Positions 5,485 through 7,554 of a stretch of 33,147 nucleotides of DNA are shown one piece after another (position 1 is the first letter of the stretch; each line of letters begins with the position of its first letter). The position numbers and the translations under genes are program-made. The notes under the pieces are model-generated. The model did not search any database, was not told the origin of the DNA, and worked only from the letters and a program-made list of their open reading frames with translations. Location of the stretch: positions 1 to 33,147 of the forward strand of contig JAKIWU010000001.1 of assembly GCA_022749905.1 (NCBI GenBank), read 5' to 3'. The stretch comes from Thermoplasmata archaeon (GTDB taxonomy: Archaea; Thermoplasmatota; Thermoplasmata; Lutacidiplasmatales; UBA184).

Positions 5485-6168
5485 CTACGGGGGGCGACGC
5501 AACCTGGCGACTGCGATCGCTGCGGCCGCCGCGATTCCCTGAGCGAGGAAATACACCCAAAGATCGGTGTAAGTTCCAGAGAGAATCGCCGGGGCGAGGG
5601 ATCGCGCGAGGTTCAGGGAGCTCCCCGAGATAGGGCCGATGACGAACGTTGAGACTCCCACGACGGCACCAGGGAGCACGAGCCGCCACCGGAGGGTCCC
5701 GGGACCCGCTGCGGCCAGGTAGAGGACGCTGAACAGGAGCAAGAGCGTGAAGACCGACTCGCCAAGCAAGGCCAGCATCCAGGCGCCGCCGCTCGGGACG
5801 GTCGATCCGAGGCGGGCTCCCGATCCGAGAACGAGCGCGACGGCCGTGCTCCCGAGCACCGCGCCGGCGAGTTGGGCCACCACGTAGACGGGAATCTCGA
5901 TCCTTGGGAACGTCCTCGCCCCCCACAAGACGACCGTCACGAGAGGATTGAGATGGGCCCCAGATGTCCCGGCGACCAGCAGGATCGGGATCGTGACCGC
6001 GAGGAACCACGCGACCGGGAGGACCCAGACGGGGGTGTTCCCATGATTCGACCCCGCGACGATCGCTCCCGTTCCAATCGCCACGAGCAAGGCCGTGCCG
6101 CCCACCTCGGCCGCGGCTCGGAGCCGGCGGCTCGGGGGGACGAGCTCGTCGCCGGAGGGAGGGCTCAC
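5485..6168 (-). CDS. MIP/aquaporin-family channel (aquaglyceroporin-like, candidate arsenite channel)
   Basis: Two hemi-pore boxes, SGAHLNPLVT and SGSSLNLARS, corresponding to the canonical SGxHxNPAVT and NPARS, with six hydrophobic segments. GTG 6168 overlaps the arsC stop (GTGA), giving 227 aa. The upstream 38 codons of the track ORF overlap arsC. Confidence 0.85.
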   Translation of the reverse strand: MSPPSGDELVPPSRRLRAAAEVGGTALLVAIGTGAIVAGSNHGNTPVWVLPVAWFLAVTIPILLVAGTSGAHLNPLVTVVLWGARTFPRIEIPVYVVAQLAGAVLGSTAVALVLGSGARLGSTVPSGGAWMLALLGESVFTLLLLFSVLYLAAAGPGTLRWRLVLPGAVVGVSTFVIGPISGSSLNLARSLAPAILSGTYTDLWVYFLAQGIAAAAAIAVARLRRPP

Positions 6169-6584
6169 ACGTGATCCGTGCGCCGGATCTCCACGATCAA
6201 CTTGCGAATCCGCGTTCGGAGCTCGTCGCGAACCGCACGGAATCCGGCTTCGTCGAGGTGCGCTGGATCGGGAAGGCCCCAATCCTGGGGATGCGCGTCG
6301 CGCAGGCGCGCCGGGCAGCTCGCATCATCGAGGCAGCCCATCGTGACCGCGATCGTCGCCGACCGCATCGCCTCGTCCGTCAGGGCCTGAGGGGAATGGT
6401 TCGGGAGCTCGAGCCCGAGTTCGCGGAGCAACGGGCCGGTCCGCGGGTTCGGCGCGGCTGCCGGCCGTGTCCCGGCCGAAGTCGCACGCCACCCCGGCGG
6501 GGCTTCGGCGTTGAACAGCGCTTCCGCCATCAAGGAGCGGCCCGCGTTCCCGACGCAGACGAAGAGCACGCGTCGGTCAGCCAT
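6165..6584 (-). CDS. arsC: Arsenate reductase, LMW-PTP / thioredoxin-coupled type
   Basis: MADRRVLFVCVGNAGRS carries the CX5R(S) P-loop. A downstream Cys pair (GCLDDASCP) and DP motif (GLPDP) are present. Size is about 139 aa. ATG 6584 is preferred over GTG 6590. Confidence 0.85.
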   Translation of the reverse strand: MADRRVLFVCVGNAGRSLMAEALFNAEAPPGWRATSAGTRPAAAPNPRTGPLLRELGLELPNHSPQALTDEAMRSATIAVTMGCLDDASCPARLRDAHPQDWGLPDPAHLDEAGFRAVRDELRTRIRKLIVEIRRTDHV

Positions 6585-6652
6585 CAGCACCAGTCACAGC
6601 AGCCGGGGGGACACCCCAGCGGGTCGCAGCAACCCGGATCGTTCTCGCTCAT
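6584..6652 (-). CDS. Unannotated 22-codon cysteine-rich small ORF (MSENDPGCCDPLGCPPGCCDWC)
   Basis: ATG 6652 is preceded by GGAGGTG with a 4-nt spacer. Six Cys in 22 residues. The TGA stop (6586-6584) shares a nucleotide with the arsC ATG (TGATG). An in-frame stop lies 18 nt upstream of the ATG. It falls below the ORF-track length cutoff. Confidence 0.45.
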   Translation of the reverse strand: MSENDPGCCDPLGCPPGCCDWC

Positions 6653-6714
6653 CGCCCACCTCCGTTCACTTCAAGGACTGAAGCAATCATAAGCTTCCGC
6701 TACGTGAAGGGGTA
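6653..6714. promoter_or_regulatory. Divergent promoter/operator region of the ars-like module
   Basis: 62 bp holding nested inverted repeats of a TGAAG/CTTCA unit: CTTCA(6669-6673)...TGAAG(6679-6683), GAAGC(6680-6684)-AATCATAA-GCTTC(6693-6697), and TGAAG(6705-6709). The only AT island (CAATCATAAG / CTTATGATTG) sits between the GAAGC/GCTTC arms. It is about 22 nt from GTG 6715 and about 36 nt from ATG 6652. Confidence 0.4.
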
Positions 6715-7038
6715 GTGAACGACTGTTGCCCGGACCCTCTTACGTGTCCGTGTCCCCCGGTGGGGCTCATCGACGTCGTCGGCAAGAAGTGGGCGATGTG
6801 CGTGGTCACCCTCCTCGGAAGCTACGGGACCCTGCGGTTCGGACCAATCCACCGGTCCCTTCCGGCGGTGAGCCCCGCGACCCTGACAGGCACGCTGAAG
6901 GCTCTCGAGCGGGAGCGGATTGTCCGCAGGGTGCCGGTCCCCGAGGACCGGCGAGCTCCGGGGGCGTACGCGTTGACGACCCGGGGGACCGCGCTCTACA
7001 GGAGCCTCCTGCCGCTCGCGAGCTGGCTCCGCGGCTGA
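6715..7038 (+). CDS. HxlR/DUF24-family winged-helix transcriptional regulator with Cys-rich N-terminus
   Basis: GKKWAMCVVTLLGSYGTLRFGPIHRSLPAVSPATLTGTLKALERERIVRR...PGAYALTTRGTAL matches the HxlR pattern (KW..L..L..G..RF..L......S...L...L+.LE...+V.R....P..V.Y.LT..G..L). The N-terminus MNDCCPDPLTCPCPP has 4 Cys. GTG start. Confidence 0.8.
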   Translation: MNDCCPDPLTCPCPPVGLIDVVGKKWAMCVVTLLGSYGTLRFGPIHRSLPAVSPATLTGTLKALERERIVRRVPVPEDRRAPGAYALTTRGTALYRSLLPLASWLRG

Positions 7039-7143
7039 GCCGGATCCATCGGCGCTCCGACACCCTCCGGCCCGAGGTCGGCGAGTCGAGCCGGTTCCCG
7101 ACCCCGAGGCGCTATGTGCGAACGCGCCGGTTCCGGCCGCACC

Positions 7144-7554
7144 ATGGAACCCGAGCAGAGTGGATGGCGCCGCCTGACGAAGGCGGAGGAACGCGTGATC
7201 GTCCACCGGGGGACCGAACCGGCGTTTTCGGGGGAATACGAGACTCTGCACGAGAAGGGGACCTATCGATGCCGTCGCTGTCGGACCGCACTCTACCGGT
7301 CGGAGAGCAAGTTCGATTCCGGATGTGGCTGGCCGAGCTTCGACGACGAGATCCTGGGGGCGGTCGACCGGATTCCGGACCCCGACGGGGAACGCGTGGA
7401 GATCCGATGCCACCACTGCGGGAGCCATCTCGGCCACGTGTTCGAGGGCGAACGGTTCACGCCGAAGAACACGCGGCACTGCGTGAACTCGATCTCCCTC
7501 GTGTTCGAGCCGGCGCCCCCCGAGGGCGCCCGAATCGAGCGCCCCCGCCTCTGA
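7144..7554 (+). CDS. msrB: Peptide-methionine (R)-S-oxide reductase
   Basis: SelR signature: two CxxC zinc pairs (CRRCRTAL, CHHCGSHLGHVF), GCGWPSF, and catalytic RHCVNS. The start is placed at ATG 7144 (MEPEQSGW); the track ORF starts at 7114. Confidence 0.9.
   Translation: MEPEQSGWRRLTKAEERVIVHRGTEPAFSGEYETLHEKGTYRCRRCRTALYRSESKFDSGCGWPSFDDEILGAVDRIPDPDGERVEIRCHHCGSHLGHVFEGERFTPKNTRHCVNSISLVFEPAPPEGARIERPRL

Follow-up and report, generated by a model that had tools for sequence, protein, structure and literature searches.

A conserved cysteine-rich micro-gene at the head of arsC operons in Thermoplasmata archaea

Metallothioneins include bacterial SmtA/BmtA, mycobacterial MymT and the eukaryotic metallothioneins that bind As(III), while phytochelatins are made enzymatically from glutathione and hold As(III) as thiolate complexes, comparable to As(GS)3. 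Here we describe a cysteine-rich short open reading frame (sORF) of 22 codons that directly precedes the predicted arsenate reductase gene arsC in a Thermoplasmata archaeon. It lies on a stretch of 33,147 nucleotides (assembly GCA_022749905.1, contig JAKIWU010000001.1, positions 1 to 33,147 of the forward strand), hereafter the window. Like metallothioneins as they are generally known, the peptides encoded by this sORF and its relatives are tiny, contain at least about 30% Cys, carry Cys-Cys and Cys-x-Cys motifs, and are encoded beside a metal(loid)-responsive regulator. They differ from metallothioneins in their length of 17–53 residues, far below that of SmtA or MymT, in their poly-Cys runs, and in their coupling to an arsenate reductase gene. 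With phytochelatins and As(GS)3 they share the character of a Cys-rich oligopeptide serving cytoplasmic As(III) sequestration, a function that for the sORF peptide is proposed; unlike phytochelatins, the sORF peptide is ribosomal and genetically encoded. The archaeal lineage of the host is not known to use glutathione.

The gene divergent from the sORF encodes a regulator of the HxlR/DUF24 family, whose members YodB, QsrR, HypR (YybR) and HxlR are N-terminal-Cys sensors. The regulator shares with them the winged-helix core and the N-terminal position of the reactive Cys, but its arm has four to five Cys (CC-x5-CPCPP plus C29) where they have one sensing Cys, and the genes under its apparent control are arsenic genes. 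Three described As(III) sites allow the Cys spacing to be compared, namely C12, C13 and C18 of ArsD, C95, C96 and C102 of AfArsR, and C15, C16 and C55′ of CgArsR (PMC12607644). The ArsD triad reads CC-x4-C, the exact spacing of CCDPLGC in the peptide, and the AfArsR triad has the CC-x5-C spacing of the regulator (PMC12607644). ArsD is also the product of an ars-operon gene, and has been proposed both to carry As(III) and to damp operon expression (PMC12607644). However, ArsD is a protein of ~120 residues with a thioredoxin fold that acts with the ArsA ATPase, whereas the product described here has 22 residues, neither arsA nor arsB is present at the window locus, and exit would be passive, through a channel.

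Two further systems resemble the operon as a whole. In the arsR-aqpS-arsC-arsH pathway of Sinorhizobium meliloti, internally generated As(III) exits through a channel (PMC6138428); an arsenate reductase there, and a predicted one here, is combined with an aquaglyceroporin in place of ArsB/Acr3. The window locus differs in having an HxlR-type regulator rather than ArsR, an archaeal host and an additional Cys-rich first cistron, and in lacking arsH. Mycobacterial polycysteine sORFs are leaderless and lie upstream of Cys-metabolism genes, where an RNA duplex hides the next ribosome-binding site until a stalled ribosome opens it (bioRxiv 10.1101/834739). Those attenuators are likewise unannotated, Cys-rich first-cistron sORFs, sometimes with long runs of Cys codons. 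In contrast, the sORF described here has a Shine-Dalgarno (SD) sequence, zero spacer to the next gene, no significant RNA structure around it, arsenic genes downstream, and relatives that stand alone.

The micro-gene and its family

A sequence-only reading of the window had proposed a hidden Cys-rich ORF with a strong SD, joined to arsC and divergent from an HxlR-type regulator. The ORF, the SD, its spacer, the TGATG junction and the divergent regulator are all found in the DNA. The minus-strand side of the locus comprises the following features.

6584..6652, minus strand: Cys-rich micro-gene, 22 codons plus stop, product MSENDPGCCDPLGCPPGCCDWC (from the ORF list and the sequence)
6657..6663, minus strand: Shine-Dalgarno-like GGAGGTG, separated from the sORF ATG by the 4-nt spacer GGCG
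6165..6584, minus strand: arsC, predicted LMW-PTP-type (thioredoxin-coupled type) arsenate reductase, 139 residues (Pfam LMWPc, 4.2e-20)
5485..6168, minus strand: MIP/aquaglyceroporin gene with a GTG start (Pfam MIP, 1.2e-28; NCBIfam MIP)

The sORF opens with an ATG at 6652..6650 and has 6 Cys in its 22 codons. The A of its TGA stop (6586..6584) is the first base of the arsC ATG (6584..6582), giving TGATG, and the GTG of the MIP gene overlaps the arsC stop in turn (GTGA, 6168–6165), so that the sORF, as the first cistron, arsC and the aquaglyceroporin gene are chained by stop-start overlaps. The peptide is 27% Cys, with one Trp and three CC pairs and without a longer Cys run. The arsC product contains a C84-x6-C91 pair in addition to its CX5R loop (C10). 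Among NCBIfam models it scores best with those named 'arsenate reductase (thioredoxin)', though its 67 bits fall well below their cut-off of 215. The aquaglyceroporin is the presumed exit route for As(OH)3.

A genome scan with an alignment of the regulator yielded 80 related loci, nearly all of them from metagenome-assembled genomes of Thermoplasmata from soils and peat. In most of these, the regulator is divergent from arsC-MIP across a gap of 110–200 nt, with arsC adjoining the regulator and the MIP gene following arsC. The gap contains a Cys-rich sORF in 44 of the 81 sequences (the 80 loci plus the window), including loci whose regulators are only ~57–60% identical. The claim that the peptide ORF is real and conserved is thus borne out: 43 related loci have a homologous sORF in the same place. 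Furthermore, the closest relatives, with regulators 78–80% identical to that of the window, all retain a Cys-rich sORF, keeping both the reading frame and the Cys residues, whose loss would have spoken against the ORF: MSSERVCECAPRRDGPTGCSCRCVPPSGPPSAAPGLSAACCGGAECPPDCC, with a TGATG overlap, MPSTCCAEKACCDP..., which is cut by the contig end, and MDPKCDCRCATTSTTTACCCCCCC...

The 44 sORFs encode 22–43 residues (median 30) with 6–15 Cys (median 11), and the window copy is the shortest and the poorest in Cys. Their overall composition is 35% Cys, 12% Pro and 8% Gly, with 1.5% aliphatic plus aromatic residues and 0.3% His; outside Cys, the peptides consist mostly of P, G, S, D, T, A and E. The start is ATG in 41 of the 44, residues 2–3 are mostly P/S/T followed by E/D (an M-P/S-E start), and a GGAG, GAGG or AGGT motif stands at −17 to −3 in 37, the consensus over 70 loci retaining G-a-GG at this place. 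Three flavours can be distinguished, and they track the regulator tree. The first, to which the window belongs, reads M-P-E...CC-x3-CCDP-x2-C(P/C)PGCC(D/E)xCC; the second reads ...PCCDPS-x-CCCCCCCC...; the third reads ...CCCCCC-x-CDCSE...PGCCRSE. Many relatives contain runs of 5–9 consecutive Cys codons, whereas the window sORF has pairs only. In one subfamily, a non-Cys motif, D-P..C-P-P-G, is conserved together with an acidic residue before the terminal CC.

Such a density of Cys is exceptional both in the window and in the related loci. Among the 301 window ORFs of at least 20 codons, only the sORF has at least 6 Cys in 22 residues; at the Cys-codon frequency of 1.7% over the six frames of the window, the binomial probability of this in any one stretch of 22 codons is 1.5e-6. 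A blind count over all six frames, which took in 12,508 stop-free frames from the 80 loci and the window, found at least 7 Cys per 20 residues only at the homologous position. The Cys codons are mixed (381 TGC and 101 TGT) and their positions vary between loci, which argues that the Cys tracts are not a pure DNA repeat. We compared the three frames in 18 pairs of loci aligned at the DNA level with 72–97% identity. The ratio of nonsynonymous to synonymous change (pN/pS) is 0.40 in the Cys frame versus 1.23 and 1.21 in the other two; for codons that are non-Cys in both sequences it is 0.81, so that constraint acts mainly on Cys. From its conservation and coding signature, we regard the 22-codon ORF as very probably a real, conserved and translated gene that has so far gone unannotated. 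As a side observation, two loci with an identical regulator protein (P0005), L090 and L091, differ by one in-frame TGC and have 7 and 6 Cys, respectively; the difference indicates in-frame repeat slippage, which may tune the number of Cys.

The arrangement expected for translational coupling to arsC, previously noted from the TGATG overlap in the window, recurs across the family. The sORF stop overlaps the arsC start in at least 30 of the 44 loci (20 TGATG or TAATG, 9 GTGA and 1 ATGA), an SD-like tetramer precedes only 6 of the 30 overlapping arsC starts, and the distance from the predicted transcript 5′ end to arsC is 70–130 nt. This geometry makes it most likely that translation of arsC depends on ribosomes terminating on the sORF, in which case the sORF would be translated wherever ArsC is made.

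Several copies occur outside this arrangement. At L073, an intact sORF (MPDKCCTNGCCDPTNCCPGCCEDCC) lies next to the regulator and is followed by 90 nt and then by the end of a convergent ABC permease gene; L036 likewise has an intact sORF next to the regulator and no co-directional downstream gene. At L053, L058, L065 and L090, the neighbour of the sORF is not arsC but an insertion sequence element, a predicted phosphatase, a Glyoxalase_6 protein or a convergent gene. A metagenome scan with the back-translated pattern CCDPxxCPPGCC, which fits a minority subtype only, returned a single matching contig, L081 (1–1138). This contig carries a 17-codon sORF (MTRNDCCDPECCPPGCC) with its own SD (GGGGAGGTGA), divergent from ArsR-MIP. 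Its regulator belongs to the ArsR family (HTH_5, 1e-15) and has ACC and CVC motifs, and downstream of the sORF come an 8-bp GC-rich inverted repeat (a hairpin) and then a GlgE gene, in an actinobacterial-looking context. A peptide of this kind therefore also occurs in another domain of life, where it is paired with an arsenic regulator of a different class. Both this occurrence and the stand-alone copies point to a binding peptide that acts in trans rather than to a leader peptide alone.

The arsR-MIP-arsC-GNAT loci on Kitasatospora/Streptomyces plasmids resemble L081 and have an ArsI/VOC gene in the divergent position. Among such plasmid loci, H1, H2 and H4 have an ArsI/VOC or other gene divergent, and no Cys-rich sORF turned up in the one that was scanned. 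No plasmid sequence matched a family member in a tblastn search, probably owing to the low-complexity filter.

Database searches place the peptide outside every defined family. A profile of 26 family members returned nothing from 5.8 billion protein clusters even at E ≤ 10, and 10 of the ORFs, looked up by exact match, are all missing from 15 billion predicted proteins; because such sORFs are short and unannotated, we do not take this silence as absence. The window peptide has no Pfam match, three family members have no NCBIfam match, and the family profile gave only noise at E > 2 against the PDB, with no metallothionein among it. The literature searched describes neither an archaeal nor an ars-operon metallothionein, and contains no paper in which HxlR-type regulators are connected with arsenite or a small Cys-rich ORF with an ars operon. 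These searches agree with the earlier statement that the peptide is not a described ars component. The window peptide and its family nevertheless have the composition by which metallothioneins are defined, that is, low mass, about 15–35% Cys, and few aromatics or His. In function, the peptide would be a very small metallothionein- or metallochaperone-like variant in an ars operon. At L085–L088 (842–1387, minus strand), arsC has been called ~40 codons too long (LMWPc, 181 residues), overrunning a Cys-rich sORF of 51–53 codons in another frame, which is one reason why the family is invisible in protein databases.

The putative shared promoter and the HxlR-type regulator

The sORF operon and the regulator diverge from a short intergenic region with the following features.

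6667..6684, no strand: palindromic box TGCTTCA-n5-TGAAGTG (family consensus CACTTCA-n5-TGAAGTG), between the TATA-like box at 6687..6693 and the predicted start of the sORF transcript
6687..6693, no strand: TATA-like box CTTATGA/TCATAAG, ~25 nt from the regulator GTG and from the predicted sORF transcript start
6697..6706, no strand: second conserved box, CACGTAGCGG in the window, consensus GTACGTAGCGG, located between the TATA-like box and the start of the regulator
6715..7038, plus strand: HxlR-family winged-helix regulator, 107 residues, GTG start (Pfam PF01638, 2.4e-15)
6715–6759, plus strand: Cys-rich N-terminal arm of the regulator, (M)NDCCPDPLTCPCPP, delimited from aligned homologues

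The upstream consensus over 70 loci, GTCCGTACGTAGCGGCGcCTTATGAgCACTTCAgcTATTGAAGTGgtcGaGG...ATG, has the order TATA-like box, palindrome, SD. The palindrome occurs once in the window, its columns are at least 90% conserved over the 70 loci, and the composite of palindrome and TATA-like box is found exactly once per locus in 44 loci; it is the presumed operator of the HxlR-type regulator. The TATA-like box is conserved as CTTATGA, CTTAAGA or CTTATAA. Its role and the transcript starts are predicted from archaeal promoter geometry, by which transcription would begin ~25 nt downstream of the box and leave a leader of ~10–13 nt carrying the SD. With a single TATA-like box at ~25 nt from both starts, the two transcripts seem to share one archaeal promoter that works in both directions, and the regulator mRNA would be leaderless. 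The second box, with 80–90% column conservation, is possibly a second operator or the initiator region of the regulator.

The annotated NCBI protein for the regulator has 92 residues (P0001); its start is placed 15 codons too late, so that the Cys arm is cut off. Among 245 regulator homologues, 26 align through the Cys-rich N-terminus, in which CPCPP and C29 never vary and a CC pair is common. Among proteins of solved structure, HxlR, YodB, QsrR and YybR/HypR come closest (E values of 1e-6 to 4e-10 to PDB sequences). In the AlphaFold model, the predicted local distance difference test score (pLDDT) is 43–52 for residues 1–20 and ~90 for the core, and the Cys arm is accordingly predicted to be flexible.

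The argument had been made that the peptide is real, and that it and the regulator bind the same soft ligand or undergo the same thiol chemistry, because both contain the string ND..CC..DPL..CP. This argument is weak, and only part of the string holds up across the family: CC-x4/5-C-P is family-wide, with CC-x4-C in the peptide and CC-x5-C in the regulator, while 'DPL' and 'ND' are common to the two products in this window only. At other loci the regulators read CCEGxLECPCPP and the peptides CCDP(T/S)xCPPGCC, and the 'DPL' that the two have in common here is a chance feature of this window. A link between the two genes appears instead in their co-occurrence. The sORF is present in 27 of 32 loci whose regulator has an N-terminal CC, versus 20 of 46 loci without it (Fisher p = 3.6e-4, kinship ignored), the number of N-terminal Cys in the regulator correlates with the upstream Cys content (Spearman rho 0.48), and only 4 of 20 loci whose regulator has no N-terminal Cys contain the sORF. 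Two sORFs are decayed, that of L030, with every CC reduced to a single C, and that of L055, with 2 Cys, and in their regulators CC has become GC or CG. Conversely, L035, L050, L062 and L065 have an sORF and a regulator without N-terminal Cys.

Proposed role and rival explanations

The observations are the ORF with its conservation and coding signature, the geometry of its junction with arsC, the arsenic genes around it and the copies that stand alone. From these we lean towards the sORF product being a metallothionein-like, As(III)-binding micro-protein with a buffer or hand-off role beside ArsC. In the proposed mechanism, arsenate would enter the cell, and As(III) on the Cys arm would cause the HxlR-type repressor to leave the palindrome. 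The sORF would then be translated from its own SD, and the terminating ribosomes would reinitiate on arsC and subsequently on the MIP gene, so that peptide and reductase are made together. With 6 Cys, the window peptide could form two three-thiolate As(III) sites, and its relatives up to five. The peptide would capture As(III) released by ArsC or entering the cell, and so protect the thiols of the cell until As(OH)3 has passed out, down its gradient, by way of the aquaglyceroporin. Peptide and the CC...C arm of the regulator may compete for As(III), which would probably damp induction, a negative feedback of the kind once proposed for ArsD.

Several points weigh against this role. Translation, peptide stability and As(III) binding are steps that we infer, as are buffering or hand-off and the regulatory feedback. 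If As(III) were buffered in the cytoplasm, the gradient of free As(OH)3 that drives passive efflux would be reduced. Constraint outside the Cys codons is weak and both length (17–53 residues) and sequence vary greatly, so what is selected could be the Cys codons themselves and not a peptide that folds. Stretches of up to 9 Cys codons in a row also recall the leader ORFs known to sense Cys. Some lineages have no sORF, namely those whose regulators lack N-terminal Cys and those with arsM-first operons. The cross-domain case is one contig of 1.1 kb, and the co-occurrence of CC and sORF is suggestive only, the count being uncorrected for phylogeny and the neighbour-joining tree of the regulator core too weakly resolved to number gains and losses.

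The main rival, which we regard as unlikely, is that the sORF acts in cis as a leader ORF whose product does not matter. Translation of its Cys codons would report the supply of Cys-tRNA or thiols, depleted by arsenite, and gate arsC, possibly through ribosomes stalled beside the overlapping start, which would make it an archaeal equivalent of the mycobacterial attenuators. The position as first cistron with a stop overlapping the start of an arsC that mostly has no SD of its own agrees with such a gate, as do the long Cys-codon runs of relatives, the confinement of selection almost wholly to Cys codons, and the precedent of mycobacterial polycysteine sORFs that control downstream genes (bioRxiv 10.1101/834739). 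However, there is no spacer before arsC in which an attenuator could form, and the predicted fold of the window leader region (6668..6550) is no better than that of shuffled sequences (z = −0.94), leaving an attenuator RNA structure unsupported. Furthermore, the downstream genes are not Cys-metabolism genes, the window sORF has no Cys run, and the intact sORFs of L073, L036 and L081 have nothing downstream to regulate. Neither the D-P..C-P-P-G motif nor the acidic residue before the terminal CC would be needed by a codon sensor.

An improbable alternative, which overlaps the favoured model, makes the peptide a partner of the regulator rather than a bulk buffer: it would serve as As(III) donor or acceptor, or as a mixed-disulfide decoy or anti-repressor. 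Regulator and sORF form a conserved core pair that persists without arsC and MIP at L073 and L036, and their correlated presence and parallel decay fit a partnership, as does the predicted flexibility of the Cys arm, which is placed like the sensing Cys of YodB, QsrR and HypR-type relatives. Against a dedicated partnership, the correlation is imperfect and confounded by shared ancestry, the L081 peptide is paired with an unrelated ArsR-type regulator, and 10–15 Cys look like capacity rather than signalling.

We consider it more improbable still that the peptide, placed in an ars locus by accident, works as a metallothionein on a different soft metal (Cu(I), Cd, Hg or Zn) or as a general thiol- or redox-stress peptide. 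A high Cys content binds many soft metals, the HxlR/DUF24 relatives sense electrophiles and oxidants, and msrB is a neighbour of the window regulator; however, every conserved neighbour is arsenic-specific (arsC, aquaglyceroporin and arsM, and ArsR at L081), and msrB is not a conserved neighbour.

That the ORF is no gene at all, but a chance frame, a (TGC)n repeat, a programmed-frameshift extension of ArsC or the precursor of a ribosomally synthesized and post-translationally modified peptide (RiPP), is very improbable and largely refuted: stop codons are rare and short ORFs common at the ~69% G+C of the contig, the (TGC)n length differs between L090 and L091, and the sORF and arsC frames are one base apart, but start, SD, frame and stop position are kept over 44 loci of differing length, TGC and TGT are mixed, the pN/pS signal is confined to the Cys frame, the overlap contains no slippery heptamer, stand-alone copies exist, and no RiPP-modifying enzyme is found among the window neighbours or in the conserved neighbourhood of the 80 loci.

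A broader model, which we put forward as speculative and doubtful, combines roles in trans and in cis. In it, a poly-Cys micro-protein family of archaea and actinobacteria would be the encoded counterpart of phytochelatin or glutathione for arsenite. In trans, the peptide would chelate As(III) and pass it to and from the regulator arm, so setting the induction threshold; in cis, the Cys demand of its translation would be a checkpoint that allows ArsC, the source of the more thiol-toxic As(III), to be made only if the thiol buffer is affordable.

If the peptide binds arsenite, it would be a new component in one of the best-studied resistance systems. It would also give archaea, a group not known to make glutathione, a minimal As(III) chelator that is encoded in the genome, and would be tied to a previously unrecognised HxlR-type arsenic regulator. 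The locus illustrates how gene callers hide such genes, with sORFs missing, arsC over-extended in some assemblies and the sensor arm of the regulator clipped at NCBI. The natural peptide series, from 3 to 15 Cys, offers a ready set for As(III)-thiolate chemistry, arsenic-binding tags, biosensors and bioremediation strains, and the stop-start chain of sORF, arsC and aquaporin offers a clean archaeal model of translational coupling.

Variant loci and neighbouring genes

The other neighbours of the window locus are msrB and genes for a TfoX_N protein and a Dam-like methyltransferase. The msrB gene (SelR domain, 4e-41; 7114–7554, plus strand) follows the regulator in the same orientation after 76 nt. 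It is probably no member of the module, as it adjoins the regulator in only 1 of the 80 other loci.

Two other kinds of short ORF stand behind the same promoter at some loci. At L014 (1588–1544, minus strand) and, upstream of the regulator, at L023 are mini-ORFs of 13–14 codons, MIGKNCGCKNPREC and MAPGCGCKNPREC, which end in CGCKNPREC and have 3 Cys; the regulators there have no N-terminal CC, and the mini-ORFs may be a one-site version of the peptide. At L005 and L054, with Cys-less regulators, a Cys-free ORF of ~24 codons is found between arsC and the regulator, and the L054 copy ends in an ATGA overlap with arsC. The Cys-free ORF could be due to chance at 69% GC, or could be a relic kept only for coupling.

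At two further loci, a protein of 134–137 residues (L013, 3541–3945, minus strand; L020, 3527–3940, minus strand) replaces the sORF-arsC pair divergent to CC-type regulators. It has no Pfam or NCBIfam match, and carries an N-terminal CxCC and an internal 'CCSH'.

Finally, variant Thermoplasmata loci have the same promoter followed by arsM-arsC-MIP, the sORF being absent. Their ArsM passes the arsenite methyltransferase model NF008823 with 308 bits against a cut-off of 263. The arsM-first loci L027, L028, L045–L047, L049, L056, L067 and L068 show a gap of ~900 bp between regulator and arsC, and the N-terminus of the variant-locus ArsM contains two or three 'SSCCG' repeats.

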